From: Vicinamibacterales bacterium
Lineage (GTDB): Bacteria > Acidobacteriota > Vicinamibacteria > Vicinamibacterales > CAZQMT01
Assembly: GCA_965197935.1 (NCBI GenBank)
Contig: CBDAOD010000002.1
Location: 1,218,849-1,282,848 of the forward strand
Reading direction: 5' to 3'
Length of the DNA stretch: 64,000 nt
Shown: in pieces, positions 1,598 to 61,636 of the stretch
How positions within the stretch are numbered: the first letter of the stretch is position 1
How the letters are laid out: every line of letters begins with the position of its first letter
Position numbers and translations under genes: made by a program
The notes under the pieces: model-generated
The model's database searches: none
What the model was told of the DNA's origin: nothing
What the model saw: only the letters and a program-made list of their open reading frames with translations

Positions 1598-1772
1598 CTA
1601 GCCCGTGACAAAAGTCCTGCGTCGCACCAAGACCGGTGCGGCGCCCGGCTGGCAAGGCGCGAGGAACGAGAATACCGGGAGTATTTGACCCGTCGTGAAC
1701 AATGCCCGACGCAGCCCGCGGCGGGATGCGGCGCCGGTCGACGGCAGCAGGACTTTTACCACGGGCCGCTAG
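1598..1772 (+). mobile_element. Core-bearing hairpin MITE, family A (copy A1, diverged arms)
   Basis: CTAG at 1598-1601 and 1769-1772. Arms are CTAGCCCGTGACAAAAGTCCTGCGTCGCACC and GCAGCAGGACTTTTACCACGGGCCGCTAG. Core contains GCGCCCGGCTGGCAAGGCGCGAGGAACGAG, with tip AATACCGGGAGTATT at 1671-1685. Confidence 0.8.
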
Positions 1773-1972
1773 CGGAGCTGCTCGAGGATCCAGCCGATGA
1801 GCCCGGGACCGGTGGCCACGGGGTCGCCGAGCCAGTCGGGCGGGGTGAGCCAGACGAACGCGAGGATCGCGATCACCATGAGGTCGTATTGCCAGGTGGC
1901 ACGTTCGTACGTCCAGAACAGGGCGTTCCAGATTACCAGCGCCGGCAGGATCACCAGGCGTCGGACGCTCAC
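1769..1972 (-). CDS. Small two-TM membrane protein, apparently translationally coupled to the upstream phosphatidyltransferase gene
   Basis: GTG at 1972-1970 overlaps the TGA (1971-1969) of the upstream gene in a GTGA arrangement. Encodes VSVRRLVILPALVIWNALFWTYERATWQYDLMVIAILAFVWLTPPDWLGDPVATGPGLIGWILEQLR. Its TAG stop is the terminal CTAG of element A1. Confidence 0.45.
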   Translation of the reverse strand: MSVRRLVILPALVIWNALFWTYERATWQYDLMVIAILAFVWLTPPDWLGDPVATGPGLIGWILEQLR

Positions 1973-2571
1973 GCAATCCCTTCGGTTCGCCCGCGATCGA
2001 GCTCGCGCCACGTGTAGTACACGCGGTCGGCCACGGTGACCAGCGACAGGACCCCGATGATCCACAGGACTGCGGCCATCCGATTCGTGAAGGCGCCGAT
2101 CATGAACAGGACGATCCGCTCTGGCCGCTCCATGAAGCCGACCTTGCACTTCGCGATCAGGGATTCGGCCCTGGCGCGGGTGTAGCTCGTCATGACGGCG
2201 AACATCATGGCGAGCGCCGCGATCATCACGTAGTCAGTGCGGCCCAGCTCCGCATACAGGAAGATGAGCCCGACGAAGAGCGAGATATCCGAGAAGCGAT
2301 CCATGACGGAGTCCCAGAACCCGCCGAAGGCTGTTTCCATGTCGAGCTCGCGCGCGACCTTGCCATCGACGAAGTCGAAGATGTTGGCGATGATCATGAT
2401 GAAGCCGGCCGTCATGAACCGTCCCATAGCCAGGGCGTACGCCGCCGCAACGTTGATGAGAACCCCGACGAGGGTGAGCAGGTTCGGATGGACCCGGAGC
2501 CGGACACAGAGCCGAATGATGGCGTTCAGCGGGAACATGCACGCCGCGCCGATGGCGCCGGTGAAGGTCAT
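1969..2571 (-). CDS. CDP-alcohol phosphatidyltransferase family protein (PgsA-like)
   Basis: C-terminal 200 aa of ORF 1969..3321, from the ATG at 2571. Contains the family motif region DFVDGKVARELDMETAFGGFWDSVMDRFSD and multiple TM segments. The start could lie slightly upstream. Confidence 0.8.
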   Translation of the reverse strand: MTFTGAIGAACMFPLNAIIRLCVRLRVHPNLLTLVGVLINVAAAYALAMGRFMTAGFIMIIANIFDFVDGKVARELDMETAFGGFWDSVMDRFSDISLFVGLIFLYAELGRTDYVMIAALAMMFAVMTSYTRARAESLIAKCKVGFMERPERIVLFMIGAFTNRMAAVLWIIGVLSLVTVADRVYYTWRELDRGRTEGIA

Positions 2572-2739
2572 GACGGTGGGTGCAGCGTTCGTGGACTCGG
2601 ATCCGTGCGAGTACCCGGCTTCGGCCGCGCGCGCGTGCGACCGCAGACTCCGAGGCTGGGTGGGGCGGCGAACGACCACGGGATGTCGCGATCCGCGAGC
2701 GCCGACGCGTCGCGACTCGTGACGGGCGCATAGTAGCCC

Positions 2740-4638
2740 ATGGCCATCGGCGATCTCAAGGCCCAGATTGCGCGGCTGCCCGAGCAGCCGGGCGTCTACC
2801 TGTATCTCAACGAGCGGGGAGAAACGATTTACGTCGGCAAGGCGCGAGTGCTGCGGGACCGCGTCCGGAGCTACCTCGGGTCGCCGGGGACGAGCCCGAA
2901 GACCAACGCCCTGGTGGGGGAAACGCACGGGCTCGAGGTGATCGTCACGGACTCGGTCGTCGAGGCTCTCGCGCTCGAGAACCACCTGATCAAGCAGCGC
3001 ACCCCCAAGTACAACATCCTGCTCCGCGACGACAAGAACTACCCGTATCTCGAGCTGACCACGACCGAGGCGTTCCCGCGGGTGCTCGTCGCCCGGCGTG
3101 TGGAGCCCGGCGGCAGCTTCTACGCTGGACCGTTCCTCCCGGCGTCGTTCGCACGCAAGACGATGTCGTTGACGCACCGGCTGTTCGGTATGCGATCGTG
3201 CAACGAGACCATAACGGGCCGGCGCGACCGGCCGTGCCTCGAGTACGACATCAAGCGCTGCATCGCGCCGTGTGTCGAGGAGATCTGCTCGCCGGAGCGA
3301 TACCGGCTGGCCGCCGAGCACACCCGGCTCTTCCTCGACGGCCGCAATGACGAGCTGGTGGCTGACCTCCGGTCACGCATGCTCGCGGCGGCGGCCGCCG
3401 AGCGCTTCGAGGAGGCCGCACAGCTACGTGACGCCATTCGCACGATCGAGACGCTGCGTCACCGTCAGCAGAAGATTGCAACCGCCGGCCTCGGGGACCG
3501 GGATGCATTCGGGGTGAAGATAGGCCCCGGCGGCGCCGTCATCCAGGTGTTCCAGATGCGAGGGGGACGCGTGATCGAGCGCGTCGAGCTCGTCACAGAG
3601 GCAGACCGGGGCGTGGTGGAGGGGACCGAGGCCGATGTCGTCGAGGCCGCGCTGCAGCAATTCTACGAGACTCGCGTCGCCCCGCCCGAAGTGCACGTGC
3701 CGGTCGAGCTCCCGGAGCCCGAGCCGCTCGAGCAGTGGCTGTCGGGTCGGAGCGGTCGTCGGGTCCGGCTGGTTGTGCCACAGCGGGGCGAGAAGCGAGG
3801 CCTGTTACATCTGGCGTCGCGCAACGCGGCGGTAGCCTACACCGCGCGCTTCGAGGAGAGCGCGGTGGCGGACGCGCATGCGCTGGAGGCGCTCGGCGCC
3901 GCCTTGGCGCTGCCCTCGCCGCCACAGCGTATCGAGTGCTTCGACGTGTCGACCATCCAGGGGAGCGAGACCGTCGGCTCGATGGTCGTCTGCGAGCGTG
4001 GCCGCCTGCGACGGGACGAGTACCGCAAGTTTCGGATCCGCCAGCTCTCGGGGCGCACGCGTCCCGGTGGCGCCGGCGCACCCGAGGGGGCGCCGATCCC
4101 CGACGACTTCGCGGCGATGCGCGAGATCGTCCTGCGGCGATTCCGTCGGCTCCTCGAGGAAGGTGGGCCGTTTCCGGACCTGGTCGTGATCGACGGTGGC
4201 AAGGGGCAGCTCTCGGCGGCGTACGGGGCCTTCGCCGACCTGGGTCTCGCCAACCTCGTGGCGGTGGGCCTCGCCAAGAAAGAGGAGCTGGTCTTCACGC
4301 GCGACCGCCCCGACCCGATTGCGTTACCCCGGACCAGCGCGGCCCTGCTGCTGCTGCAGCGTGTCCGGGACGAGGCACACCGGTTTGCCGTGACGTTCCA
4401 CCGGCGTGCGCGCCGGATGCGGGACCTTCGCTCGGAGCTGGATCAGATTCCCGGGGTCGGGCCTCGGCGGCGCCGCACCCTGCTCACGACCTTCGGCAGC
4501 GTGGCGGGCGTGCGCCGGGCCACGCGGGAGGAGCTGGTCCGCGCTGTGGGTGCACGCACGGCCGACGCCGTCCTCGGCTACTTCGCCGGCTCCACCCCTC
4601 ACATTTTGTTTTTTGCGGCTTTTCTGGTCTACTCTTAA
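2740..4638 (+). CDS. uvrC: Excinuclease ABC subunit C
   Basis: GIY-YIG N-terminus (PGVYLYLNERGETIYVGKARVLRDRVRSY), UvrBC-interaction region, RNase H-like endonuclease part and C-terminal HhH (LDQIPGVGPRRRRTLLTTFGS). Confidence 0.93.
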   Translation: MAIGDLKAQIARLPEQPGVYLYLNERGETIYVGKARVLRDRVRSYLGSPGTSPKTNALVGETHGLEVIVTDSVVEALALENHLIKQRTPKYNILLRDDKNYPYLELTTTEAFPRVLVARRVEPGGSFYAGPFLPASFARKTMSLTHRLFGMRSCNETITGRRDRPCLEYDIKRCIAPCVEEICSPERYRLAAEHTRLFLDGRNDELVADLRSRMLAAAAAERFEEAAQLRDAIRTIETLRHRQQKIATAGLGDRDAFGVKIGPGGAVIQVFQMRGGRVIERVELVTEADRGVVEGTEADVVEAALQQFYETRVAPPEVHVPVELPEPEPLEQWLSGRSGRRVRLVVPQRGEKRGLLHLASRNAAVAYTARFEESAVADAHALEALGAALALPSPPQRIECFDVSTIQGSETVGSMVVCERGRLRRDEYRKFRIRQLSGRTRPGGAGAPEGAPIPDDFAAMREIVLRRFRRLLEEGGPFPDLVVIDGGKGQLSAAYGAFADLGLANLVAVGLAKKEELVFTRDRPDPIALPRTSAALLLLQRVRDEAHRFAVTFHRRARRMRDLRSELDQIPGVGPRRRRTLLTTFGSVAGVRRATREELVRAVGARTADAVLGYFAGSTPHILFFAAFLVYS

Positions 4639-4642
4639 CGTC

Positions 4643-9360: not shown

Positions 9361-9389
9361 TTGACCGGGTGACCTAAGTATCGTATAAT
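9361..9389 (+). promoter_or_regulatory. Near-consensus sigma-70-type promoter upstream of rpsA
   Basis: TTGACC (9361-9366), a 17-nt spacer, then TATAAT (9384-9389) in a locally AT-rich patch. A GGGAGGAGG Shine-Dalgarno sequence precedes the ATG at 9480. Confidence 0.5.
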
Positions 9390-9479
9390 CTGTCGCTTAT
9401 CGGAATAGGTGTCGGAGAGGTCTGGACCGCGCCGGGGCACGCGCCCTGGCCATCATGGTGGGAGGAGGACCGGGAACGC

Positions 9480-11243
9480 ATGGCCAATGTAGACGACGTG
9501 AACCAGCCTGAGCCCACGCAAGGCGGAGGCGGGGCGACGACGGGCTTGACGCAGGATTCCTCGGTCGAGACGGACGAAGATCAGATTTCGACGGAGGAGT
9601 ACGCGCAGCTCCTGAGCCTCTACGACAGCAGCTTCCGCAACATCGCCGAGGGTGAGGTCGTGAAGGGCACCGTGCTGAAGGTGACGGCGTCCGAGGTGAT
9701 CGTCGACGTCGGCTACAAGTCCGAAGGGATGATCGCGCTCGAGGAGTTCCTGGACGAGAACGGGCAGGTGACCGTCCAGGCCGGCGACATCGTGGATGTG
9801 CTGCTGGAGCGGACCGAGGACCGGGAAGGCCACGTCGTCCTCTCGCGCGAGAAGGCCGAGAAGATGAAGGTCTGGGACGAGGTCGAGCGGGCCTATGCGG
9901 AGCGCAAGGTCGTCATCGGCCGCGTGATCGAACGGATCAAGGGAGGGCTGGCGGTCGACATCGGCGTGCGTGCCTTCCTGCCCGGCTCCCAGATCGACGT
10001 TCGACCGGTGCGCAACCTCGACGCACTCCGCGGTCAAGAGCTGCGGATGCGGGTCATCAAGGTCAACAAGAAGCGCGGCAACATCGTGCTGTCGCGCAAG
10101 GCGCTCCTGGAAGAAGAGAACGCCGAGAAGAAGAAGCAGACGCTCGCCACCCTGGCCGAGGGGAACGAGATGAAGGGCGTGGTCAAGAACATCACCGACT
10201 ATGGCGCCTTCGTGGATCTCGGGGGCATCGACGGGCTGCTGCACATCACCGACATGTCCTGGGGACGCGTGTCGCATCCCTCCGAATTGTTCAAGGTCAA
10301 CGACGAGATCGACATCGTCGTGCTGAAGTACGACCCCACCACCGAACGCGTCTCGCTTGGTCACAAGCAGCTGAAGGCCGATCCGTGGACCAACGTGGAC
10401 GAGCGATACCCGGTTGGCACTCGGGTGGGTGGCAAGGTGGTGAGCGTGACCGACTACGGCGCGTTCATCGAGCTCGAGGCCGGTATCGAGGGTCTGATCC
10501 ACGTCTCGGAGATGTCCTGGAGCAAGCGCGTCAAGCATCCGTCCAAGATCCTCAGCGTCGGGGACGCCGTCGAGGCGATGGTGCTCGGCGTCGATCCCAG
10601 CGCGCGACGCATCTCGTTGGGGCTCAAGCAGGTGGAAGCGAACCCGTGGCACGAGCTCGCCGCTCGCTACCCGCTGGGCTCGCGCATCGTGGGAAAGGTG
10701 CGGAACCTTACCGAGTTCGGCGCCTTCGTCGAGGTGGAGGAGGGGATCGACGGCCTGATCCACATCTCCGACATGTCCTGGAGCAAGCGGCTGAAGCACC
10801 CCTCGGAGGTGCTGAAGAAGGGCGACAAGGTCGAGGCGATGGTGCTCAACATCGACGCCGAGAACCAGCGGCTCTCGCTCGGGCTCAAGCAGCTCGCGAC
10901 GGACATGTGGGACGAGTACTTCAGCACCCAGAAAGTCGGCGACGTCGTCGAGGGAAAGATCGTTCGGCTGACGAACTTCGGGGCATTCGTGGAGCTGGCC
11001 GAGGGCATCGAGGGATTGATTCACATCTCCGAGTTCGACGAGGCGCAGGGCGTGGAGAAGATCGAGCTCCAGGTCGATCAGGCCTATCAGATGAAGATCA
11101 TCAAGCTGAGCCCGACGGATCGCAAGATCGGCCTCAGCATCCGGGCCCTCAAGCAGGAGGACCATCGATCCGACTGGGAAGCCTACACGTCCTCGGGCAG
11201 CCCGGACGTGACGCTCGGGGACCACTTCAAGCACAACCAGTAG
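9480..11243 (+). CDS. rpsA: 30S ribosomal protein S1
   Basis: Six tandem S1 domains (repeated G.V..I...GAFV.L..GI.GL.H.S. pattern), 587 aa. Confidence 0.95.
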   Translation: MANVDDVNQPEPTQGGGGATTGLTQDSSVETDEDQISTEEYAQLLSLYDSSFRNIAEGEVVKGTVLKVTASEVIVDVGYKSEGMIALEEFLDENGQVTVQAGDIVDVLLERTEDREGHVVLSREKAEKMKVWDEVERAYAERKVVIGRVIERIKGGLAVDIGVRAFLPGSQIDVRPVRNLDALRGQELRMRVIKVNKKRGNIVLSRKALLEEENAEKKKQTLATLAEGNEMKGVVKNITDYGAFVDLGGIDGLLHITDMSWGRVSHPSELFKVNDEIDIVVLKYDPTTERVSLGHKQLKADPWTNVDERYPVGTRVGGKVVSVTDYGAFIELEAGIEGLIHVSEMSWSKRVKHPSKILSVGDAVEAMVLGVDPSARRISLGLKQVEANPWHELAARYPLGSRIVGKVRNLTEFGAFVEVEEGIDGLIHISDMSWSKRLKHPSEVLKKGDKVEAMVLNIDAENQRLSLGLKQLATDMWDEYFSTQKVGDVVEGKIVRLTNFGAFVELAEGIEGLIHISEFDEAQGVEKIELQVDQAYQMKIIKLSPTDRKIGLSIRALKQEDHRSDWEAYTSSGSPDVTLGDHFKHNQ

Positions 11244-11724: not shown

Positions 11725-12222
11725 ATGGAACGTCTGTGGTCCCCCTGGAGATCGGCCTACGTGACCGGCGCCGGCCAGGCAACCGAGGGGTGCGTCTTCT
11801 GCGAGGCCGTCGAACGCCCGGCGTCCGAATCGCCGCTGGTGGTGTGCCGGGGACGGCATGCCTTCGTGATCCTGAATCTCTACCCCTACAACAACGGCCA
11901 TCTGATGGTGGTGCCGAATCGGCACGTGGGGTCGCTGGCGGACGCGGCGCCGGCCGAGCTGCAGGAGCTCATGGAGCTCACCCGCCAGGCGGAGATGGCG
12001 CTGGACGAGGTCTACCACCCGCAGGGTCTCAACCTGGGGATGAACCTCGGTCGACCGGCGGGGGGCGGCGTGGCTGACCACCTCCACATGCACGTCGTGC
12101 CGCGCTGGAACGGCGATACGAACTTCATGACGGTGGTCGGCACCGTGCGCGTCCTCCCGGAGACCCTGGAGCAGGCCGCCGAGCGGTTGCGCCCGGTCTT
12201 CGAGTGTCTCCGGGCCTCCTAG
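11725..12222 (+). CDS. HIT family hydrolase
   Basis: ATG at 11725. Histidine triad HLHMHVVPR, CVFC zinc-type motif and NLYPYNNGHLMVVP. Confidence 0.85.
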   Translation: MERLWSPWRSAYVTGAGQATEGCVFCEAVERPASESPLVVCRGRHAFVILNLYPYNNGHLMVVPNRHVGSLADAAPAELQELMELTRQAEMALDEVYHPQGLNLGMNLGRPAGGGVADHLHMHVVPRWNGDTNFMTVVGTVRVLPETLEQAAERLRPVFECLRAS

Positions 12223-12279
12223 CAGCCCCTCTCGCGCACGGTGTGCCCCTTCTGGGGGTCGTTCGCGGCCTCTGGCTAG
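12219..12279. repeat. Short unclassified CTAG-to-CTAG module between the HIT stop codon and element C
   Basis: CTAG at 12219-12222 (contains the HIT stop TAG) and at 12276-12279. Its ends CAGCCCC...GGCCTCTGG resemble the sequence after the rpsA stop (TAGCCAGAGGCC at 11241). Too short to classify. Confidence 0.3.
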
Positions 12280-12441
12280 TGGACTGTATCAGTCATTTCC
12301 GTAGCACTCCCCGGGCGGAGCATCCCGGCGGACGGCGTTGCTCCTCCCTCGAATACTCCCGGTATGCTCGGTCGTCGCGCCTTGTCCGCCGGGCGCTGCG
12401 CTCCGGCGACCGCTACAGAAATGACTGGTACAGTCCACTAG
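12276..12441 (-). mobile_element. Core-bearing hairpin MITE, family C
   Basis: Arms are CTAGTGGACTGTATCAGTCATTTCCGTAGC and GCTACAGAAATGACTGGTACAGTCCACTAG. Core is in reverse orientation with tip AATACTCCCGGTAT at 12352-12365. Confidence 0.8.
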
Positions 12442-12606
12442 CTAGCAGCCCGTGGTAAAAGTCCTGCGTCGCACCAAGGGGGCGCTGCGCCCGGCTGGCA
12501 AGGCGCGAGAAGCGAAAATACCGGGAGTATTTGACCGACGAGCAACACAGCCGGGCGGGATGCAGCGCCGGCCGACTGCAGCAGGACTTTTGCCACGGGC
12601 TGCTAG
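12442..12606 (+). mobile_element. Core-bearing hairpin MITE, family A (copy A2)
   Basis: CTAGCAGCCCGTGGTAAAAGTCCTGC ... GCAGGACTTTTGCCACGGGCTGCTAG, with tip AATACCGGGAGTATT at 12517-12531. The left CTAG directly follows the CTAG of element C (CTAGCTAG). The right CTAG contains the stop of the minus-strand ACAD gene. Confidence 0.85.
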
Positions 12607-13757
12607 CTGCGCTCGGTGGCGGCCAGGATATGCGCGGCGATCACCATCCGATGGACTTCCGAGGTGCCCTGGTAGATTTCGGTTGCTCGGATGTCGCGGA
12701 ACAACCGCTCCACGCGAGAGCCGCGGCTGTAGCCGGCGGAGGCGAGGATCTGCATCGCCTTGTCGGCGGCCCGGTGCGCGGCCTCCGACGCGTATAGCTT
12801 GGCCATGGCGGCCTCGAGCGACGCGCGCTGCTGCGTGTCCTTGGCGGCGGCGGCCTTGAGCATGAGCATGCGTGCGGCATCGAGCTCGGTCGCCATGTCC
12901 GCGAGCATCCACTGGACCGCCTGGTAGCTGGCGATCGGCTTTCCGAACGTGTGGCGGTGCTGCGCGTGCGCGAGGGCCTCCTCCAGCGCGGCGCGGCCCA
13001 CGCCCAACGCCTGCGCGGCGATCGCCACGCGCCCCCCGTCCAGCGCCCACATCGCAATCCGGAAGCCCTGTCCCGGCTCGCCGAGCATCTGGTCCTCCCC
13101 GACCTCGACGCCCTCGAGCGCCAGGTCCAGGCAGCCAAGCCCCCGCACGCCCAGCGAATCGGCACGTGGGCGGCGCGTGAGCCCAGGGGCGTCGAGCGGG
13201 ACTAGAAACGCGCTGACTCCGCGCCCGCCGATGCCGGGCTGGGTCGCCGCGAACACCACGGCGACCTTGGCTGCCTCGGCGTTGGCCACCCAGATCTTGA
13301 GACCGTCGAGCCGATACCCGCCCCCGCTCGGGACCGCGGTCGTCTGCTGGTTGGCAGCGTCGGTGCCGGCGTTCTCCTCGGAGAGCGCGAAGGCGCCCAC
13401 GCTCCGCCCCGAGGCCAGCGCCCGCAGCCAGTGCTGCTTCTGGGCCTCGGTACCGAACTGGGCGAGGACCTCCGCCACCAGAGAGTTGTTGACGGCGACG
13501 ATCACGGCGATCGTTGCACTGGCTTGCGCGATGGCCTCCACCGCGAGGGCGTAGCTCAGGTAGTCGCGGCCCCCGCCGCCCCACTCGGGCGCGACCGTGA
13601 CCCCCAGCAACCCCAGCTCGCCCAGACGGGCGACGATGTCGCGTGGAAAGGTCCCGCTCGCGTCGATCGCCGCGGCGAGCGGCGCCACCTCGTGGTCGGC
13701 GAAGCGGCGGGCGGCCTCCTGGAAGTCGATTTGCTCGCGTGTCAGCTCGAGCCGCAT
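12603..13757 (-). CDS. Acyl-CoA dehydrogenase
   Basis: 384 aa with typical ACAD layout (FALSEENAGTDA, catalytic-base region YQGTSEVHRMVIA at the C-terminus). Confidence 0.9.
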   Translation of the reverse strand: MRLELTREQIDFQEAARRFADHEVAPLAAAIDASGTFPRDIVARLGELGLLGVTVAPEWGGGGRDYLSYALAVEAIAQASATIAVIVAVNNSLVAEVLAQFGTEAQKQHWLRALASGRSVGAFALSEENAGTDAANQQTTAVPSGGGYRLDGLKIWVANAEAAKVAVVFAATQPGIGGRGVSAFLVPLDAPGLTRRPRADSLGVRGLGCLDLALEGVEVGEDQMLGEPGQGFRIAMWALDGGRVAIAAQALGVGRAALEEALAHAQHRHTFGKPIASYQAVQWMLADMATELDAARMLMLKAAAAKDTQQRASLEAAMAKLYASEAAHRAADKAMQILASAGYSRGSRVERLFRDIRATEIYQGTSEVHRMVIAAHILAATERS

Positions 13758-13798
13758 GGCGCGTGTCTCCGGTCAGTTGTTGCAGCCGAGACGGAACA

Positions 13799-14959: not shown

Positions 14960-15135
14960 GTCGCCGGCCTTCCACGCGGCATCGACCGGGAGCCCTTCCG
15001 TGGCGTCCGGCGCCTAAAGAGGGGAAGATGTTATCATTGAAAAAGGTCGCGTCACGAAGTCTCGCGTTGCCCGGGCGCGTCGTGCTGCTCGGGTGCTGTT
15101 GGCCCGTGAGACGGCGCCGGGGATAACCAAGGATC

Positions 15136-17238
15136 GTGTTCGGCAGTCTTCGACCGATGACGGTGGGCACGCTGGCGCTGCTGTTGGCAGCGGCCGTGCG
15201 GGCTGACCATCAGCCACCGCAACAGTCCCAGCCGACCGAGCAGACCGAGCAGGCCGAGCCCACGGAGACCCAGGCTCCCCAGCCGGTCTTTCGGACGGGC
15301 ATCGACTTCGTCCGCGTCGATGTGATCGTCACTGATGGCGATGGGAATCCGGTCCTGGACCTCGGGCCGGACGACTTCGAGATCTTCGAGGACGGCAACC
15401 CTCAAACCATCGAGTCCTTCAAGCTGGTGCGGATTTCGGGCGTTCCCGAGCCCGACGCGGAGCCGGCTCGGCCGATCCGCAGCGTGTACGACGAAGAGCG
15501 TGAAGCCGCGCGCGAGGATACCCGGCTCTTCGTGATCTTCCTCGACGATTATCACGTGCGGCGGGGGGCAAGCCTCGCCGTCCGTGGCCCGCTGATGAGC
15601 TTCCTCCAGGACCTCGGGCCCCTGGACATGGTCGCGGTGATGTATCCGCTGACGCCGGTCGGGGACGTGCGGTTCACTCGGGATCATGGGGCGCTGACCC
15701 GGATGATCCAGCAGTTCGACGGCCGCAAGTTCGACTACACGCCACGGAACCAATACGAGGATCGCTACGCCATGTACCCGTCCACGGTCGTGGAGCGGAT
15801 CCGCAACGAGGTGTCGTTCTCCGGGTTACGGGCCCTGGTCACGCACCTCGGCGCGCTGCGCGAGGGACGAAAGTCGGTGATCGTGGTCAGCGAGGGGTAC
15901 ACGAACATGCTGCCGCCGCAGCTGCGCGAGGAGGTGGCCGGATTCCGGGGGACTGGGCCGGGCGCCGGGGCGGCCGGCGGCTTCGAGGACAGCGCGGCCG
16001 AGGACACGGCGCGCTTCTTCGCCGATGCGGATCTCCAGTTCGAGCTTCGCCGGGTATACGACGCGGCGAATCGCTCCAACACGTCGCTCTACACGCTGGA
16101 CCCGCGCGGGCTGGGGGTCTTCGAGTTCGGTATCGACGAACGTGTCGGGTTTCGCACGGACCAGACGTTCATGCGTAGTACGGCGGACACGCTCCGGGTC
16201 CTCGCCGATCAGACGGACGGCCGGGCCATCGTCAACCAGGCCGACCTGGAGGGCGGGCTGAGGCAGGTCGTCAGGGACACGAGCTTCTATTACCTGGTTG
16301 GCTATAACTCCAGCGAGGCGCCGACGGATGGCAAGTTCCATCCGATTCAGGTCGAGGTCAAGCGCCGCGGCGTACAGGTGCGCGCCCGGACGGGGTATTG
16401 GGCCTTGACCGCCGAGGAGACGGCCCGGGCGCTGGCGCCCCCCGCCCCCGGGCCGGACCCCGCCGTCGCGGAGGCCCTCGGCGCGATCGCTCAGCCAACG
16501 CGCGGTCGCGCGGCGCGGACCTGGCTCGCCACGGGCCGGGGTCCGAACGGCAAGACCCGGATCACCTTCGTCTGGGAGCCGTTGCCGGCGGGTCCGGGCG
16601 CGCGCGGCGACGCGCCGGTCCGCGTGTCGTTGATGGCGTCCGGGCAGGACGGTCAATCCTACTTCCGCGGCCACGTGCCCGACGTGACGCTCGCCTCGGC
16701 CGAGCCCGGTGGGGCGGGCGGTGCGGCGCCGGCGGCGCGCACCGGACCGTCGCGGGTGGTCTTCGATGCGGACCCGGGGCGAGTGCAGCTGCGGATCTCG
16801 GTGGAGGGCGCGGCGGGACAGGTGCTCGACAACGCCGTCCAGGAAATACTGGCCCCAGACTTCACGACGCCCACGGTGGCCCTGAGCACGCCTATCGTCA
16901 TCCGCGCCCGCAACGTCGTCGAGTTGCGCTCGCTGTCGACCGATCCGGACGCGGTGCCATCCCCGGGGCGGGAGTTCCATCGAAGCGAGCGCGTGCTCAT
17001 CCGCTTCGAGGTGTACGGCCCCGGCACCACGCCGCCGACGCCCACATCGGCGCTCCTCAACCGTGCGGGTGAGTCGATGATGGAGCTGTCGCTCGGTGCC
17101 TCGGCCGGCATCGAGGGTGTGCACCAGCTCGAGGTGCCGCTCGCCGGCCTCGCGCCAGGCGGCTATCTGGTGGAGATCAAGGCCACCGCCGAGGGTGGCG
17201 ATGCGAAGGAGTTGGTGGCCTTCCGGGTCGTCGGCTAG
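15136..17238 (+). CDS. Secreted VWFA-related protein (acidobacterial VWFA-type N-terminal domain)
   Basis: Signal peptide. FRTGIDFVRVDVIVTDGDGNPVLDLGPDDFEIFEDGNPQTIESFKLV followed by a VWA-like region (VIFLDDYH..., SLYTLDPRGL) matches the family I know as the VWFA-related acidobacterial domain. 700 aa. Confidence 0.75.
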   Translation: MFGSLRPMTVGTLALLLAAAVRADHQPPQQSQPTEQTEQAEPTETQAPQPVFRTGIDFVRVDVIVTDGDGNPVLDLGPDDFEIFEDGNPQTIESFKLVRISGVPEPDAEPARPIRSVYDEEREAAREDTRLFVIFLDDYHVRRGASLAVRGPLMSFLQDLGPLDMVAVMYPLTPVGDVRFTRDHGALTRMIQQFDGRKFDYTPRNQYEDRYAMYPSTVVERIRNEVSFSGLRALVTHLGALREGRKSVIVVSEGYTNMLPPQLREEVAGFRGTGPGAGAAGGFEDSAAEDTARFFADADLQFELRRVYDAANRSNTSLYTLDPRGLGVFEFGIDERVGFRTDQTFMRSTADTLRVLADQTDGRAIVNQADLEGGLRQVVRDTSFYYLVGYNSSEAPTDGKFHPIQVEVKRRGVQVRARTGYWALTAEETARALAPPAPGPDPAVAEALGAIAQPTRGRAARTWLATGRGPNGKTRITFVWEPLPAGPGARGDAPVRVSLMASGQDGQSYFRGHVPDVTLASAEPGGAGGAAPAARTGPSRVVFDADPGRVQLRISVEGAAGQVLDNAVQEILAPDFTTPTVALSTPIVIRARNVVELRSLSTDPDAVPSPGREFHRSERVLIRFEVYGPGTTPPTPTSALLNRAGESMMELSLGASAGIEGVHQLEVPLAGLAPGGYLVEIKATAEGGDAKELVAFRVVG

Positions 17239-17398
17239 TGCACCGCCGTCGAGATGCGGTCACGGATCGGGTTCGCAGCGCGCCCAGGCGCAAGGCGCCG
17301 CGACGAGGAATACCGGGAGTATTTCGAGGAGCGGCAACGCCGCGGGTGGGTGTGCTGCGGGCTCGAGGCGTGACCGCGTCTCGACGGCGGTGCACTAG
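17235..17398 (+). mobile_element. Core-bearing hairpin MITE, family B (copy B1)
   Basis: CTAGTGCACCGCCGTCGAGATGCGGTCACG ... CGTGACCGCGTCTCGACGGCGGTGCACTAG, with tip AATACCGGGAGTATT at 17309-17323. The left CTAG contains the TAG stop of the VWFA gene. Confidence 0.85.
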
Positions 17399-41435: not shown

Positions 41436-41522
41436 CCGGTTCGACAGCCCACGCGGCAGCCCGCGACGCAACCCGTCCCGTGCCCCGTCCAGGCCGGTCG
41501 TGGCAGCTCTCGGGGCGGCCGA

Positions 41523-44828: not shown

Positions 44829-44990
44829 CAGCCCGTGGTGAAAGTCCTGCGTCGCACAAAGGGCGGCGCTGCGCCCGGCTGGCGGGGCGCGAGGAGGAAA
44901 AATACCGGGAGTATTTGACCGACGAGCAACGCAGTCAGGCGGGATGCAGCGCTGGCCGACTGCAGCAGGGCTTTTACCACGGGCTGCTAG
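44825..44990 (+). mobile_element. Core-bearing hairpin MITE, family A (copy A3)
   Basis: Shares its left CTAG (44825-44828) with B2. CTAGCAGCCCGTGGTGAAAGTCCTGC ... GCAGGGCTTTTACCACGGGCTGCTAG, with tip at 44901-44915. The right CTAG holds the stop of the minus-strand PBP gene. Confidence 0.85.
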
Positions 44991-47260: not shown

Positions 47261-47405
47261 CTCGGCTGCCCTTTCTCCCGTGCCCCGCCCGGGCGGGTGC
47301 TCCGGGCTGCGACGACGCGGGACAACCCCATGGTAGACGGTTTGGCGACGGAGGGGAACCTCCGTTGCGACGTCTTGCCCGCCGGGCGCCGCGCCCGCTC
47401 GGGTG

Positions 47406-47814
47406 CTAGCAGCCCGTGGTGAAAGTCCTGCGCTGCACCAAGGGCGGTGCTGCGCCCGCCTGGCTAGTACTACTTTGTTAGATCCGCAATTGCACCGACT
47501 CTAGAGTCTCCCTCTGGGATGGGTGAAACCCCTCGCCTTTAGGCGAAGCCTTCAGGAGGCCGCAGGGCCGGACCTCTTCGGGCTCTGGGACGTGCGCCGT
47601 GATAGTCGGCTTCAGCCGACGCGGCGCACTGATTCCCTCGCCTTCAGGCGAGGGAGACTCAAATCACTTGTCGGATCTCGCCCAAATTGTGCGATCTAAT
47701 AAAGTAGTACTAGGCGCGAGGAGCGAAAATACCGGGAGTATTTGACCGACGAACAACGCGGTCAGGCGGGATGCAGCGCCGGCCGACTGCAGCAAGATTT
47801 CTACCACGGGCTGC
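47406..47814 (+). mobile_element. Core-bearing hairpin MITE, family A (copy A4) interrupted by a nested family F element
   Basis: Left part is CTAGCAGCCCGTGGTGAAAGTCCTGCGCTGCACCAAGGGCGGTGCTGCGCCCGCCTGG. A 250-bp insert follows, then GCGCGAGGAGCGAAAATACCGGGAGTATTTGACC...GCAGCAAGATTTCTACCACGGGCTGC. The right terminal CTAG is lost (CTGCGGG). Confidence 0.8.
47464..47713. mobile_element. Family F element (related to family D termini), nested inside A4
   Basis: CTAGTACTACTTTGTTAGATC ... GATCTAATAAAGTAGTACTAG inverted repeats bounded by CTAG on both sides. The interior is rich in stem-loops. Its termini resemble the D1 end GTACTACGTTGTCAGATC. Confidence 0.75.
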
Positions 47815-53750: not shown

Positions 53751-54233
53751 ATGAGTTCGATTCTGATTTTGCCGGTGCATGCTCGCCGGCGCATGGTGCT
53801 TGGCCTTGCGATCGTTGGGGTGTGCCTTGCGGTGACCGCCGGCAGTGTTCAGGCGCAGGATGCCCCGGTTCGGACCTTTGCATCGGAGGTGGGAGTTCTT
53901 TTCAATCCGATCAAGCCCGAGGCGACCGCCGATTTCGAGGAGGTCATGGGCAAGGTCAAGGAGGCCCTCGCCAACAGCGAGGACCCGATGCGGCAAGAGC
54001 AGGCGGCCGGCTGGAGGATCTTCAAGTCCAAGGAGCCCGGCCCCGGCGGGAGCGTCTTCTACGTCATGGTGATGGATCCCGCGGTCGAGGGCGGTGAGTA
54101 CGCCGTCGGGCAGCTCCTCGCCGAGTCCTTCCCTGACGAGGCGCAGAGTCTCTACGAGAAGTTCAGCGCCGCCTTCGCGGGCGGCCAGAGCTTGATGAAC
54201 CTCGACCTCGTCAGCAGCTTCAGCACCCCGTAA
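53751..54233 (+). CDS. Secreted hypothetical protein (paralogue 1)
   Basis: GGAGGGAAG Shine-Dalgarno before the ATG at 53751, and a signal peptide (LGLAIVGVCLAVTAGSVQA). The mature part is very similar to the next gene. Confidence 0.6.
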   Translation: MSSILILPVHARRRMVLGLAIVGVCLAVTAGSVQAQDAPVRTFASEVGVLFNPIKPEATADFEEVMGKVKEALANSEDPMRQEQAAGWRIFKSKEPGPGGSVFYVMVMDPAVEGGEYAVGQLLAESFPDEAQSLYEKFSAAFAGGQSLMNLDLVSSFSTP

Positions 54234-54465: not shown

Positions 54466-54987
54466 ATGACAGCACGCAATGCGTGGCGAAGTCGTCGAGC
54501 CGGAGCGGCGAGGGCGAGCCTGCCGGTCGCGATGGTGACCGTGATGCTGCTCGGCTTGACGGTGGAGGGGCTCCAGCAACCCGCCCCGTCGACCGGCGAG
54601 GGTTCGGGAGAGGTTGTCCCGGTCAGGACCTTCGCATCGGACGCGGGGATCATTCTGAATCCGATCAAGTTCGAGGCGACCGCCGATTTCGAGCTGGTCA
54701 TGGGCAAGCTCAAGGAGGCCCTGGCCAGCAGCGAGGACCCGAAGCGGCAGGAGCAGGCGGCTGGCTGGAAGGTCTTCAGGTCCCAGGAGCCTGGCCCCAG
54801 CGGCAGCGTCCTCTACGTCATGGTGATGGATCCTGCGGTGCAGGGCGGCGAGTACGCCGTGTCGAAGATCCTCTCAGAGGCCTTCCCCACGGAGGTGCAG
54901 GAGCTCTACCAGAAGTTCAGCGACGCCTACGCGAGCGGGCAGAGTCTGCTGAACCTCGATCTCGTCAGCAACTTCAGCGCCCCCTGA
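54466..54987 (+). CDS. Secreted hypothetical protein (paralogue 2)
   Basis: ATG at 54466 and a signal/TM segment. VRTFASDAGIILNPIKFEATADFELVMGKLKEALASSEDPKRQEQAAGWKVFRSQEPGPSGSVLYVMVMDPAV... aligns without gaps to paralogue 1. Confidence 0.6.
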   Translation: MTARNAWRSRRAGAARASLPVAMVTVMLLGLTVEGLQQPAPSTGEGSGEVVPVRTFASDAGIILNPIKFEATADFELVMGKLKEALASSEDPKRQEQAAGWKVFRSQEPGPSGSVLYVMVMDPAVQGGEYAVSKILSEAFPTEVQELYQKFSDAYASGQSLLNLDLVSNFSAP

Positions 54988-55053
54988 TGGTGTGTCTCAC
55001 ACATGACGCGACGGCTCGAGGTGTGGGCGCCGGATCTGACAACATCGTGCTAG
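54988..55053. repeat. Family D half-element
   Basis: GGTGTGTCTCACACATGACGCGACGG...GGGCGCCGGATCTGACAACATCGTGCTAG. Its reverse complement aligns with the D1 left arm (CTAGCACTACGTTGTCAG...). It starts right after the stop of paralogue 2 and shares its CTAG with B3. Confidence 0.45.
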
Positions 55054-55213
55054 TGCACCGCCGTCGAGATGCGGTCGCGCCTCGAGCCCGCTGCACACCC
55101 ACCAGCGGCGTTGCCGCTCCTCGAAATACTCCCGGTATTCCTCGTCGCGGCGCCTTGCGCCTGGGCGCGCTGCGAACCCGATCCGTGACCGCATCTCGAC
55201 GGCGGTGCACTAG
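55050..55213 (-). mobile_element. Core-bearing hairpin MITE, family B (copy B3)
   Basis: CTAGTGCACCGCCGTCGAGATGCGGTCGCG ... GTGACCGCATCTCGACGGCGGTGCACTAG, with tip AATACTCCCGGTATT at 55125-55139. The right CTAG holds the stop of the minus-strand OMP gene. Confidence 0.85.
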
Positions 55214-60274: not shown

Positions 60275-60875
60275 CGGCCGGGCACGGACGTTCTCCGTCA
60301 CCCCACGCCTTGCCGCGGGAGCCGCCGCGCATGGCAGGGTGCGAGGGGCGAGAACGGGCGCGTGGCTGGCGCTGCTGCTCGCGACCGTCCTGTGGACGGC
60401 GTCGCTCATCGCGGCCCCGTATCTGGCCGCCCATCCTGACGCCGCCGGCCTGGGCGTGAGGGCGGCGGCGATGGTCTATGTCCTCGCGGGCGCCGTCTGT
60501 CATCAGCGTCCCGACCGATCGTTTCACGCGTGGGGCGTGCAGCTGCCGGTTTGCGCCCGTTGCTTTGGGCTCTACCTAACGGTGCCCCTCGGCCTGCTGA
60601 TGGGGGGAGTGAGCGCCGGCTGGCCGTGGCGTCGCCTCCGTCGACGACCCCTAGCAGCCCGTGGTGACAATTCTGCATCGCACCAAGGGCGGCTCGGCGC
60701 CCGGCTGCCCGCCGCGCTCCTGCTCTTCTCGGCCGTCCCGACGGCCCTCACGGTGGCCGCGGAGTGGTCCGGGCTGGGCCAGCCGACCGACGTGACACGG
60801 GCCGCGGCGGCGGTGCCGCTGAGCGCGGCGGTGGGCTGGGTCGTTGCCGCCACGATCCGCGGACACCTGAGGTAG
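60267..60875 (+). CDS. DUF2085-like membrane protein containing an in-frame MITE arm fragment
   Basis: CHQRPDRSFHAWGVQLPVCARCFGLYL is the DUF2085 signature. The loop codons PLAARGDNSASHQGRLGARL are encoded by the family A arm fragment at 60651-60707. Confidence 0.7.
   Translation: MPSGRARTFSVTPRLAAGAAAHGRVRGARTGAWLALLLATVLWTASLIAAPYLAAHPDAAGLGVRAAAMVYVLAGAVCHQRPDRSFHAWGVQLPVCARCFGLYLTVPLGLLMGGVSAGWPWRRLRRRPLAARGDNSASHQGRLGARLPAALLLFSAVPTALTVAAEWSGLGQPTDVTRAAAAVPLSAAVGWVVAATIRGHLR
60651..60707 (+). mobile_element. Family A left-arm fragment (57 bp) embedded in a coding sequence
   Basis: CTAGCAGCCCGTGGTGACAATTCTGCATCGCACCAAGGGCGGCTCGGCGCCCGGCTG, compared with A3 CTAGCAGCCCGTGGTGAAAGTCCTGCGTCGCACAAAGGGCGGCGCTGCGCCCGGCTG. 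Confidence 0.6.
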
Positions 60876-60930
60876 ACTGAGCGAACCCTCGCGCGGCACA
60901 GGTGACACCGCCCAGCCGAAACCCGGGTCC

Positions 60931-61299
60931 ATGGAAAGAGGAACTCTGGTCCTAATGTGTGTGACGGCCTGGGCCGTGCCCGGCGCCGGACATCTCTGGC
61001 TGCGGCGTCGCCAGAAGGGCGTGATCTTCCTCGTGACGCTCCCCTTCATGTTCACGATTGGGCTCCTGCTCGACGGCCGGTTGTTCCCCTTCGTGCCATC
61101 GCAGCCACTCGTGGCGCTGGCCGCGGTCGCCAACCTCGGCATCGGCCTGACCTACTTCATCGCGCGGGCGGCCGGAGCGGGCGCCGGGGTCGTGACCGAG
61201 GTCGCCTACGAGTACGGCAACACCTTCCTCATCGTGGCCGGGCTGCTCAACCTGCTCGTGATCCTGGACGCCTTCGACGTCGCGCTGGGACGAAAGTAG
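60931..61299 (+). CDS. Hypothetical membrane protein
   Basis: 122-aa ORF with three hydrophobic segments (GVIFLVTLPFMFTIGLLL, LVALAAVANLGIGLTYFIA, FLIVAGLLNLLVIL). Confidence 0.5.
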   Translation: MERGTLVLMCVTAWAVPGAGHLWLRRRQKGVIFLVTLPFMFTIGLLLDGRLFPFVPSQPLVALAAVANLGIGLTYFIARAAGAGAGVVTEVAYEYGNTFLIVAGLLNLLVILDAFDVALGRK

Positions 61300-61307
61300 G
61301 CCGGGTC

Positions 61308-61481
61308 ATGGTGAGCCATTTCCTGCTGCTGGCGCTGTTCTCGTTCTTCGTCTCGCTCATCTTCGCCGTGCTCACCCGCGACGATCCGGGTGACCAGCTA
61401 CGATTCGGCGCGCTCATGTTCGCGGGGCTGACGGGCAGCGCGATCGTCCTCGGCTGGCTGATGTTTCCCCTTCCACTCTAG
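61308..61481 (+). CDS. Hypothetical small membrane protein (57 aa)
   Basis: ATG at 61308. MVSHFLLLALFSFFVSLIFAVLTRDDPGDQLRFGALMFAGLTGSAIVLGWLMFPLPL. The TAG stop lies in the terminal CTAG of element E. Confidence 0.4.
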   Translation: MVSHFLLLALFSFFVSLIFAVLTRDDPGDQLRFGALMFAGLTGSAIVLGWLMFPLPL

Positions 61482-61636
61482 TGTCCTGTCACAGTAATTC
61501 GTGGAGTAAGTCCCGCCATCCCGCCTGGCAGCGTTGCTCGTCGCTCGAATACTCCCGGTATGCTCACTCCTCGCGCCTGGCCAGCCGGGCGCCGCGCACG
61601 GGACTTACTCTACGAATTACTGTGACAGGACACTAC
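61478..61636 (-). mobile_element. Core-bearing hairpin MITE, family E
   Basis: CTAGTGTCCTGTCACAGTAATTCGTGGAGTAAGTCCCG ... CGGGACTTACTCTACGAATTACTGTGACAGGACACTAC (right CTAG mutated to CTAC). Tip AATACTCCCGGTAT at 61548-61561. Confidence 0.8.

Follow-up and report, generated by a model that had tools for sequence, protein, structure and literature searches.

Within the window (the whole stretch of 64 kb that was analyzed) lie twelve copies of a repeated element, three of them degraded, and one unrelated insertion nested in a copy. Arm families are lettered, and core coordinates are matches to a covariance model of the shared interior.

1598-1772, plus strand: MITE copy with arm A and a long core variant, its 3′ half carrying about 10 additional nt that fold as a small side hairpin; core 1640-1731
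12276-12441, minus strand: MITE copy with arm C; core 12318-12397; adjoins the following copy at the junction CTAGCTAG
12442-12606, plus strand: MITE copy with arm A; core 12486-12565; its terminal CTAG provides the stop codon of the minus-strand gene 12603-13772
17235-17398, plus strand: arm-B MITE whose ends are of IS630 type; core 17277-17357; the TAG stop of gene 15127-17238 lies within its left CTAG
18887-19029, minus strand: degraded chimeric copy with a left arm B and a right arm of E type; a deletion between two CTCCTCG repeats has removed the tip hairpin; the core model matches weakly at 18928-18987 (22.5 bits)
41516-41553, plus strand: right-end remnant of an A-arm copy, CGGCCGAATGC...GGACTTTCACCAGGGCCTGCTGG
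44664-44828, minus strand: MITE copy with arm B; core 44706-44786; has one terminal CTAG in common with the following copy
44825-44990, plus strand: arm-A MITE that has inserted into the end CTAG of the preceding B copy; core 44870-44949; the minus-strand gene 44987-47500 has its stop in the right CTAG
47406-47814, plus strand: arm-A MITE that a nested insertion has cut into a left part (47406-47465) and a right part (47712-47814); partial core match at 47709-47762
47464-47713, no strand: core-less MITE of 250 bp, unrelated to the other copies and with ends GTACTACTTTGTTAGATCCGCAATTG..., lying inside the A copy
55050-55213, minus strand: MITE copy with arm B; core 55093-55169
60651-60709, plus strand: truncated A-arm copy, comprising the 5′ half (arm and first core bases)
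61478-61636, minus strand: MITE copy with arm E; core 61514-61593; CTAC replaces CTAG at one end

The exact tip sequence ATACCGGGAGTAT occurs nine times in the window compared to 0.35 expected and a maximum of 2 in shuffled sequence. A window scan with the core covariance model recovered these nine tip-bearing copies and the tip-deleted copy at 18928-18987, with no other match. Each of the nine forms a hairpin of 159-175 nt, and the single-strand folds have z-scores of -8.5 to -14. An earlier note on this DNA had described nine CTAG-bounded hairpins of about 160-175 bp; the tip is present in all nine and the long-hairpin folds stand, with two exceptions to the description. The copy at 47406-47814 spans 409 bp owing to its nested 250-bp MITE and has no CTAG at its right end, and that at 61478-61636 ends in CTAC on one side. 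The degraded copies at 18887-19029, 41516-41553 and 60651-60709 are additional to those nine.

The elements are MITEs, small non-autonomous fold-back transposons, that duplicate TA at CTAG. Insertion occurs at TA, mostly within CTAG, which here is usually a C followed by a TAG stop codon, and the CTAG ends coincide with stop codons; as the TA is duplicated upon insertion, the stop codon is rebuilt. The nested MITE at 47464-47713 has TA on either side, direct evidence that TA is duplicated at CTAG. It lies where the core GGCAAGGCG reads GGCTAGGCG, and the intact GGCTAGGCG variant is found in loci L075 and L076. The same TA/TA flanks surround the A copy within the CTAG of the B copy and 15 complete A-type insertion sequences.

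Full-length insertion sequences located elsewhere have the outermost 25-38 bp of either side as their terminal inverted repeats. Arm A is the end of a 1.45-1.56-kb IS5/IS1182-like element (DUF772 and DDE_Tnp_1), and in 24 of the 86 metagenome matches that could be evaluated a transposase follows the arm; the best NCBIfam model for this transposase is IS1182, at 182 bits, which is under the model cutoff of 270. Arm B matches the ends of an IS630 element (L055:40-1124; 182 bits on NF033545, cutoff 100; DDE_3 domain) at 25-26 of 30 positions. A further arm beginning AGTAC, known only outside the window, agrees at 26 of 34 positions with the 34-nt end of an IS630-like element in L003. The core is absent from all of the full-length insertion sequences found for these three arms; the earlier note had proposed this check, in which a core inside such elements would have made the MITEs plain deletion derivatives. 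No transposase of the IS5/IS1182-like or IS630 type is encoded in the window, bearing out the earlier report for these two transposase families, and the transposases for these ends must act in trans. We also found A-arm MITEs with unrelated interiors and an arm-only A palindrome (L133), so the A-arm transposase does not need the core for mobilization.

Between arm families in the window, the outer 34 nt are 44-65% identical by gapped global alignment, which we judge to be about the level of unrelated 34-mers. Arms C and E, at 62-65% identity and with the same outer-core class, are related; the four unrelated families proposed earlier therefore reduce to three clearly unrelated groups. The 78-nt core, by comparison, is 71-85% identical between arm families, confirming that the interior is shared while the arms look unrelated. 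The previously noted pattern of interchangeable ends around a constrained interior thus holds, and the contrast is stronger than supposed, as the ends derive from two unrelated transposase superfamilies.

The core module, 80-110 nt in size, is a rod-like hairpin with strong covariation. In an alignment of 70 sequences (A1), 91% of cells are paired, compared to 27-46% in slid controls. Twelve pairs in this alignment (165 cells) and 17 pairs in an independent sample picked by arm, not core, changed on both sides, levels reached by 0 of 500 shuffles in each case, although these controls overstate significance because the copies are related by descent. Its Watson-Crick pairs are able to flip; fixed are three or four G·A pairs in tandem, two G·U(T) pairs and the unpaired positions, which form an AAG/N loop within the stem, an AAC bulge and a bulge of a single A. 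Conservation is 88-100% for the G·A and G·U pairs and the AAC and single-A bulges, with the arm-picked sample giving this range for the G·A columns and both bulges, and the middle G·A pair is replaced by A-U or C-G pairs in one subtype. The two halves had been described as pairing only in blocks; once the tandem G·A and the G·U oppositions are counted, pairing is nearly full-length. Likewise, the tip hairpin thought to be invariant is so in the window, whereas across the family its stem is kept by compensatory changes (CATAT-CGGGC-ATATG, CAGAG-TGGGC-CTCTG, CAAAT-TGGAA-ATTTG), and CGGCA is a frequent tip loop. A search of Rfam with the core matched no family.

The conserved features are strand-asymmetric. 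We counted 172 purine-purine oppositions (110 GA/AG and 62 GG; 182 with AA) and 30 pyrimidine-pyrimidine oppositions (11 CT/TC, 10 CC and 9 TT), and the plus-strand fold is the more stable one in 63 of 67 copies with RNA parameters and in 59 of 67 with DNA parameters. Covariation together with conserved non-canonical pairs shows selection on one specific folded strand. The earlier reading of a functional structured core within replaceable stems is upheld as to structure (covariation, non-canonical pairs, a single strand) and not as to function.

Among the first 100 matches, in a genome sample picked by a pattern that fixes 19 core positions, the core is present in at least 58 genome assemblies, mostly of Vicinamibacterales, and it occurs with at least eight arm types. 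One derived inner-core subtype is found in three different arm shells, inner-core subtypes are common to several arm families in the same or related MAGs, and the inner 60 nt alone have been swapped in L008, L031 and L097. The core module, and even its inner 60 nt alone, has thus been exchanged between arm shells, in agreement with the earlier suggestion that the families recombine, of which the chimeric copy at 18887 is an example in the window.

Copy orientation is random relative to neighboring genes (36:32 and 25:19 at gene ends) and to GC skew (52:43). The random orientation and the decay of three of the twelve window copies suggest that selection after insertion is absent. We hypothesize, at about even odds, that the core of these modular MITEs works in cis, in the form of a folded single strand. 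If copies insert in random orientation and then decay, conservation would come from selection on those that go on transposing, and hence the module would act on its own carrier copy; the argument for this role is purely evolutionary. The active form may be single-stranded DNA exposed in replication or transcription or, less likely, nascent RNA. The folded core could zip the two ends together and present a structure-specific site to a putative host factor, such that any pair of transposon ends with the core inside would make an efficient and tolerated MITE. New combinations of arm and core may arise by nested insertion, by recombination at conserved anchors (GGCGCCC / GGGATGC and GCACCGAG / CGAATGC) and by quasi-palindrome template switching. 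Transposition by Tc1/mariner/IS630 enzymes is described as double-strand cut-and-paste with no hairpin intermediate (PMC2170065), and a single-strand step would therefore be without precedent for them.

A structured non-coding RNA acting in trans or for the host, with MITEs of several families as mere vehicles, would fit the conservation pattern, since covarying helices, conserved G·U and tandem G·A pairs and A-rich unpaired positions are typical of functional RNAs. It could bind proteins or serve as a sponge, or else affect the processing or stability of the 3′ UTRs at landing sites. Copies on stop codons would be co-transcribed with the upstream gene, RNA-level effects are documented for ERIC and Correia elements (PMC2229807), and with no Rfam family such an RNA would be undescribed. 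We nevertheless consider it unlikely. At gene 3′ ends, 36 copies are sense and 32 antisense, yet the conserved features are one-stranded. The two element-containing regions scanned hold no sigma-70-type promoter, and their sole terminator-like match has a 5-bp stem inside arm C. A product acting in trans is a shared good that would not preserve each transposing copy, and a quarter of the window copies have decayed. By our tally of the per-pair tables, G·U intermediates at variable pairs (about 20) are not commoner than A·C intermediates (17), a signal for neither RNA nor DNA.

Another explanation takes up the earlier note's suggestion of a core element that colonized other palindromic MITEs: the core would be a mobile unit in its own right (about 106-110 nt, GCACCGAG...CGAATGC) that enters the apex of existing palindromic MITEs or is captured time and again between the ends of transposons. 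The boundary of the outer core is a sharp one, seen in no fewer than eight unrelated arm types, the arm-only A palindromes and A-arm MITEs with other interiors offer "empty" hosts, and L074 has an onion-like layering with an additional palindromic shell between arm and core. We regard this explanation as improbable, given that no core-only copy was found in about 810 kb picked by the core pattern (genome loci and window) and that no insertion signature was found around the core: the arm/core junctions have no duplication or conserved target motif, only 0-3 variable bases on the 5′ side. Moreover, the exchange breakpoints differ, as in the inner-60-nt swaps, a pattern better explained by homologous exchange than by a single insertion mechanism, and an enzyme for such a step is neither known nor seen. 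It is very improbable, in our view, that the core has no function and that the interiors are similar through recent spread of one successful ancestor and gene conversion among copies, the arms differing because they are unable to recombine. The three B copies in the window, at 94-99% identity, are consistent with recent bursts, and concerted evolution would give the sharing of subtypes by arm families in the same or related MAGs. However, compensatory double changes at 12-17 pairs are left unexplained by neutral descent or conversion, and so is the finding that conservation is highest in the non-complementary G·A, G·U and bulge columns while intervening pairs flip. Homogenization by quasi-palindrome template switching would remove such mismatches, and the window cores differ by 15-29% between families, so homogenization is not under way here.

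For the preferred reading, a folded core acting in cis, REP/REPIN elements are the closest analogy for a possible mode of action. These are very abundant extragenic long hairpins, imperfect palindromes that RAYT transposases recognize strand-specifically in trans as folded single-stranded DNA. Their conserved recognition part lies at the ends, and they have neither TA duplication nor IS-type inverted repeats, whereas the elements described here have the ends of DDE transposons and a central conserved part. In integron attC sites, too, one folded strand is functional, and structure and extrahelical bases are recognized while the paired sequence varies; the present core likewise keeps unpaired features on one folded strand and leaves the paired sequence free. 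The R/L boxes (RYYYAAC...GTTRRRY) of attC sites and their same-orientation cassette arrays beside an integrase were not seen here, and attC sites have no TA duplications. Rice Stowaway elements, mobilized by Osmar mariner-like transposases, resemble the present elements as Tc1/mariner-mobilized, full-length fold-back MITEs with TA duplication, and internal MITE sequences reportedly raise their transposition frequency (work of Yang, Nagel, Feschotte and Wessler in Science, 2009). They are eukaryotic, the feature common to Stowaway families is the ends, and we know of no description there of a conserved internal structure common to different transposase superfamilies.

Among bacterial fold-back repeats, the ERIC/IRU elements of enterobacteria (about 127 bp) are imperfect palindromes that end in TA, are conserved across species and have orientation-dependent effects on mRNA (PMC2229807). 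They form a single family whose ends measure 7 bp and for which no IS partner is known, whereas the present ends are interchangeable and IS-derived. The Correia/NEMIS elements of Neisseria (fold-back, about 100-155 bp) have TA termini, an interior IHF site and long-hairpin transcripts (PMC2229807). They share with the present elements the fold-back form, the TA at the ends and an interior motif, but that motif is a double-strand protein site within one end family with no identified transposase, whereas the conserved features of the present core are non-complementary positions on one folded strand. RUP of Streptococcus pneumoniae, a short non-coding fold-back repeat with IS630-family-like ends, inserts at TA and is mobilized in trans (PMC2229807). 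This IS630-Spn1-dependent MITE parallels the match of arm B to an IS630 end, but RUP uses a single set of ends, and no functional motif has been reported from its interior. In the present elements, a single internal module is combined with at least eight sets of ends, drawn from two transposase superfamilies. What they have in common is the interior and not the ends, which points to a structured DNA or RNA module, as yet undescribed, carried by several families of transposons.

The conserved 13-nt tip ATACCGGGAGTAT has nine exact occurrences in the window, compared to a mean of 0.35 and a maximum of 2 in shuffled sequences, and it lies precisely where the earlier note had placed each of its nine elements. 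When these are read in tip orientation (hereafter the + strand), the central 75–85 nt can be aligned throughout, and the outer parts fall into discrete groups, the arm families A, B, C and E. Between arm groups, the 78-nt core is 71–85% identical; gapped global alignment of the outer 34 nt gives 44–65% identity, which we judged, without a random baseline, to be near that of unrelated 34-mers. Every element folds as a single strand into one long hairpin (−96 to −135 kcal/mol, z-scores of −8.5 to −14).

The elements are 159–175 bp long, and nine copies per 64 kb amount to about one per 7 kb. All nine had been described as full-length and bounded by CTAG, which holds except that the copy at 47406 reaches 409 bp through a 250-bp MITE nested inside it and that two copies have one degenerate end each. 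The description of four unrelated arm families has to be revised, as arm C is related to arm E. An unfiltered covariance model of the core, run over the window, returned the nine copies and a tip-deleted copy (18928–18987), with no further match. Besides the nine, there are three degraded copies (18887–19029, which holds the tip-deleted core, 60651–60709 and 41516–41553), so that truncation or internal deletion affects 3 of the 12 in the window. Identity among the three B copies is 94–99% when arms and core are compared, which would fit a recent burst. The window also holds a 300-nt direct repeat (53857–54156 and 54611–54910; 83% identity, 754-nt spacing), probably tandem paralogous genes, and a gene (9378–11243) with four internal repeats of about 261 nt each, consistent with the S1-domain repeats of a ribosomal protein S1-like gene.

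The core consensus, GGCGCCCGGCTGGCAAGGCGCGACGACCGAGAATACCGGGAGTATTTGAGCGAGGAGCAACGCnGCCAGnCGGGATGCAT, comprises 80 ungapped columns from 70 distinct copies. On this alignment, a 27-pair structure places standard pairs in 91% of cells, with both-side changes in 12 pairs (165 cells), and none of 500 shuffles matched any of its cell- or score-based measures. Sliding the partners by 1–3 columns lowered pairing to 27–46%, and RNAalifold independently recovered the same helices. As the 70 copies came from a selection on 19 core positions, the count was repeated on copies chosen by arm A only: in this alignment, whose fitting to the core model somewhat favours the structure, 17 pairs changed on both sides (0/500 shuffles) and the tip stem varied with compensation. 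The tip hairpin, earlier taken to be invariant, varies across the family while keeping a 5–6-bp stem: stem variants include AATAC/GTATT, CATAT/ATATG, CAGAG/CTCTG and CAAAT/ATTTG, and the five-base loop occurs as CGGGA, CGGCA, CGGGC, TGGAA or TGTGA.

The most conserved columns are those unable to form Watson-Crick pairs, which are kept in 88–100% of cases. The apical stem contains three tandem G·A/A·G oppositions, spaced by 1, 2 and 1 ordinary pairs, and a fourth tandem G·A lies in the outer core (CGAG opposite CGAA); further conserved columns comprise two G·U(T) pairs (64/70 and 50/70 copies), an AAG internal loop, an AAC bulge and a bulged A. The pairs between the fixed mismatch columns flip among C-G, G-C, A-U and U-A. 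One subtype has A-U and C-G pairs in place of the middle G·A/A·G, confirming that the G·A positions stack within the helix. Within the arms and outer stem, we counted 172 purine-purine oppositions (GA/AG and GG; 182 with AA) versus 30 pyrimidine-pyrimidine ones, and the G·A-bearing strand has the more stable fold in 63 of 67 copies under RNA parameters and in 59 of 67 under DNA parameters. Where the earlier note proposed a functional structured core, the structural part is upheld by the covariation and the fixed mismatches. These patterns show that the core is under selection as the fold of one particular strand. A double-strand site for a dimeric protein is ruled out, because its conserved bases would be symmetric and its variable ones free of covariation; in the core, the conserved positions are non-complementary and the variable ones covary.

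In the inner part of arm B (17265–17276 with 17357–17368), three G·T wobbles and a two-base mismatch allow pairing in the + orientation only, so that the strand asymmetry extends outside the core.

With the terminal 21 nt of arm A as query, a scan of metagenome contigs yielded more than 120 loci, and arm A was followed by a transposase gene in 24 of the 86 evaluable ones. The A-type insertion sequence (15 complete copies, 1448–1556 bp) has ends GCAGCCCGTGGTGAAAGTC...GGGCTGC and TA/TA flanks, and it encodes a 454-aa protein with Pfam DUF772 (66 bits) and DDE_Tnp_1 (38 bits) domains. The best NCBIfam model for this transposase is IS1182 at 181.9 bits, short of the cutoff of 270, with IS5 models lower, so that any named family for it is tentative; the ends of arm A match a full-length DUF772 and DDE_Tnp_1 element, as in MITEs of the IS5/IS1182 superfamily. 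Arm B is identical at 25–26 of 30 positions to both ends of an IS630-family element (L055:40–1124; L-numbers denote loci from the genome and metagenome scans outside the window), whose transposase has a DDE_3 domain and scores 181.7 bits on NF033545 (cutoff 100). A third arm type, found only outside the window (AGTACTGCGTTTCA..., the AGTAC arm), agrees at 26 of 34 positions with the terminal 34 nt of an IS630-like element at L003, which scores 91.3 bits on NF033545, slightly below the cutoff. The inverted repeats of both arm B and the AGTAC arm match those of full-length IS630-type elements. For arms C and E, the loci retrieved contained no autonomous partner; both resemble the IS630 ends in L073 only loosely, and we did not count this as a match.

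A tblastn search of the window with both transposases gave no match, in line with the earlier observation that it lacks a transposase gene. Since the arms match IS ends and the window holds no such gene, the ends come from at least two unrelated DDE superfamilies acting in trans; their sources are IS630-family and IS5/IS1182-like elements. The ISs of L055 and L003, like the A-type IS, lack the core, and the core model found no match inside them. The earlier note had allowed that full-length ISs holding the core would make these elements plain deletion derivatives; the ISs found for arm A, arm B and the AGTAC arm are all without it. Beyond the inverted repeats they share nothing with the core, which rules out simple internal deletion of these ISs as its origin. 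At L065:3236–4474, foreign DNA with an opposite-strand IS630-like transposase fragment interrupts the 3′ half of a copy that carries the core (after GCAACGCC), which looks like an IS inserted into a MITE.

Insertion sites could be read both from nested copies and from gene ends.

Nested element and example CTAG sites in the window
47464–47713: 250-bp MITE of another kind, with inverted ends of about 45 bp (GTACTACTTTGTTAGATCCGCAATTG...) and without the core, nested in the core of an A copy
13799, 25424, 43082, 53688 and 60271: example CTAG sites

The nested insertion turns GGCTAGGCG, a variant of the core sequence GGCAAGGCG that is present intact in L075 and L076, into GGC-TA-(element)-TA-GGCG, with TA on both flanks. 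Its target CTAG arose by a single A-to-T change in the core. Similarly, the A copy at 44825 is inserted into the terminal CTAG of a B copy, and nesting is common, with two abutting pairs and one nested copy in the window alone. At CTAG sites, a 2-bp and a 4-bp duplication are indistinguishable because the sequence is palindromic; the non-CTAG flanks of the A-type IS identify the duplication as TA. IS630-family elements duplicate TA, prefer CTAG and move by double-strand cut and paste without a hairpin intermediate (PMC2170065). The elements share the TA duplication and the CTAG preference, and they are short, non-coding, multicopy and without their own transposase. They are thus TA-duplicating MITEs.

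The window contains 34 CTAG sites versus about 190 expected from composition, an approximately five-fold depletion. Elements end at nineteen of the 34, and C+TAG stop codons account for at least five of the remainder. Given this depletion and the stop codons among the remaining sites, stop codons are the main landing sites. Because the elements start with G and end with C, the TA duplication restores CTAG on either side and thus the stop codon: TAG still terminates the genes with ends at 17238, 18890, 12603 (minus strand) and 44987 (minus strand), with part of each stop codon now belonging to an element.

To follow the core beyond the window, we scanned one genome per species with a pattern fixing 19 core positions and obtained at least 100 loci in at least 59 assemblies. 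One locus, L046 (Chitinophaga), is a chance match, leaving at least 58 genomes with the core. Among the matches listed, nearly all hosts are Vicinamibacterales or 'gp6' Acidobacteriota; a few loci are labelled Thermodesulfobacteriota, Syntrophobacteria, Deltaproteobacteria or Sandaracinaceae (G+C 59–67%), with labels that come from metagenome binning. The viral contigs and plasmids searched held no core copies. The core sits within at least eight unrelated types of arm, and most share a wider unit of about 106–110 nt with a sharp boundary (GCACCGAG...CGAATGC); C and E arms have a second version of the outer core. Four A-arm elements from metagenomes (L117, L147, L155 and L192) have interiors distantly related to the core, in which CAAGGCG, GCAAC/GCGAC and a tip hairpin rich in A and T are kept; the search pattern therefore covers only part of the core family. 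A arms also surround unrelated interiors (L104, L106 and L112), and the smallest element with A ends is a 56-bp arm-only palindrome of two A ends and a 13-nt centre (L133:929–984).

Some copies have additional layers. L002, L037, L050:5849–5930, L098, L100 and L193 carry an extra hairpin of about 40 nt (CCGGGGTCCCC...GGGGTGGAG) at one common position within the core's 3′ half, which may be a tiny nested element or an optional stem. At L074:4942–5020 and its flanks, an additional palindromic shell (CCAGTTCTCCCGGTGGGGGC...) lies between an A-like arm and the inner core in onion-like layers. At gathering thresholds, no part of the window matched an Rfam family; with E relaxed to 10 for 12200–12700, the only hits were plant miRNA-precursor models and RAGATH-16, all far under threshold.

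A derived inner-core subtype, marked by a GGATCGC/GCGAGGC stem and by Watson-Crick pairs in place of the middle G·A, occurs in three shells: A arms (L004, L029, L066 and L050:5849–5930), C arms (L008 and L031) and the third arm type (L097). In the two C-arm copies, the derived inner core sits within the other version of the outer core. The exchange breakpoints lie at the conserved anchors GGCGCCC and GGGATGC. This distribution shows that the families have recently swapped the inner 60 nt. Together with the chimeric copy at 18887, in which a left arm of type B is combined with an E-type right arm and the tip has been lost between two CTCCTCG repeats, it establishes exchange as real and supports the earlier suggestion that the families recombine. 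New symmetric combinations could plausibly arise by nesting followed by deletion, by recombination at the anchors or by template switching in the quasi-palindrome. The suggestion that the core colonises palindromic MITEs fared less evenly: arm-only A palindromes do exist, but we found neither a core-only copy nor an insertion signature around the core. The variable breakpoints would be better explained by homologous exchange than by a core colonising empty palindromes, and we consider it quite unlikely that the core is an independently inserting unit. Neutral descent combined with gene conversion runs counter to the conserved mismatch columns and seems very improbable.

The orientation of the elements is unbiased. 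Near gene 3′ ends, 36 copies are sense and 32 antisense; the corresponding counts are 25 and 19 near gene 5′ ends and 52 and 43 relative to local GC skew, and no bias was seen against genes, GC skew or the majority gene strand. Along with the decayed copies and the near-identical B copies, these counts are as expected if insertion is symmetric and blind to orientation and if decay sets in afterwards. No orthologous insertions between genomes were found among the loci compared. As orientation is unbiased and the conserved features lie on one strand only, inserted copies are likely to have no role in the expression of their neighbours. We infer that conservation is upheld by selection among copies that transpose onward. 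The core would then have to act in cis on its own copy, since a trans-acting product would be a shared good and individual copies would not stay intact. This cis action is an argument rather than an observation.

That the core acts in cis through a folded single strand is, in our view, about as likely as not. Most simply, the folded strand would be ssDNA laid bare at replication or transcription, and the core fold would draw the two element ends together at the base of the hairpin, with the sheared G·A pairs and bulged A residues as a shape offered to a putative structure-specific host factor. This cis model has to contend with IS630-type transposition being a double-strand reaction without a hairpin intermediate and with the existence of A-arm MITEs that lack the core. 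Its main rival is an RNA function of the core, and the conservation pattern does resemble that of a functional RNA; given the unbiased orientation and the lack of a detectable sigma-70-type promoter in the two element-containing regions scanned, we regard this as unlikely. In the same two regions, the only terminator-like match was one 5-bp stem inside arm C. A further possibility, less likely than not, is that the core is a hitherto undescribed structured motif, RNA or folded ssDNA, with its own dedicated trans-acting partner, for which unrelated transposon ends are interchangeable vehicles. If so, the unit of selection would be the hairpin module, hitch-hiking through Vicinamibacteria and other phyla.

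MITE families are usually defined by their ends, and their interiors are regarded as filler. Here this logic is inverted across transposase superfamilies: one interior is combined with at least eight end sets from two unrelated DDE superfamilies in at least 58 genomes. The covarying, mismatch-bearing core is absent from Rfam and from the literature searched, in which we found no description of these elements. Covariation together with conserved non-canonical pairs is what a fold under specific recognition should show. Should it act in cis, structure could turn arbitrary transposon ends into successful MITEs, with the hint that cut-and-paste transposition includes a single-strand step; should it act as RNA, the core would be an abundant new motif in a dominant, poorly studied group of soil bacteria. 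Sitting precisely on stop codons about once per 7 kb in the window, the elements further shape the 3′ ends of numerous transcripts.

Several known motifs were compared with the core and rejected. A kink-turn has a three-nucleotide bulge with tandem G·A/A·G pairs directly 3′ of it; here, G-C and C-G pairs follow the AAC bulge, and the tandem G·A is two pairs off, on the 5′ side. A CsrA-type GGA loop is excluded because GGA is missing from the loop variants CGGGC, TGGGC and TGTGA. A resemblance to SRP/4.5S RNA (GCAACGC and CCGGGAUG) fails, as both motifs are on the same arm here and Rfam gives no match. On inspection, a small ORF from the conserved ATG has no in-element stop, and its SD-like tract switches arms.

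REPIN/RAYT systems and integron attC sites each involve one folded strand recognised by shape, and the core may be read in a similar way, although the elements belong to neither class. REP/REPIN-RAYT systems carry conserved REP palindromes terminally, make no target duplication and come with a genomic RAYT gene; the ends here are IS-type inverted repeats with a TA duplication, and the conserved part is central. attC sites have R″/L″ and L′/R′ boxes and form cassette arrays in one orientation, whereas the core consensus lacks these boxes and the copies are dispersed in both orientations. IS200/IS605-type PATEs have subterminal hairpins at both ends without inverted repeats or duplication, and they are ruled out by the single full-length hairpin, the inverted-repeat ends and the TA duplication. 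Judged by their sequence features, the elements are MITEs, of IS630 type for arm B and of IS5/IS1182 type for arm A. In architecture, and with ERIC and Correia set against descriptions only rather than consensus sequences, they are like RUP, Correia and ERIC elements (PMC2229807).
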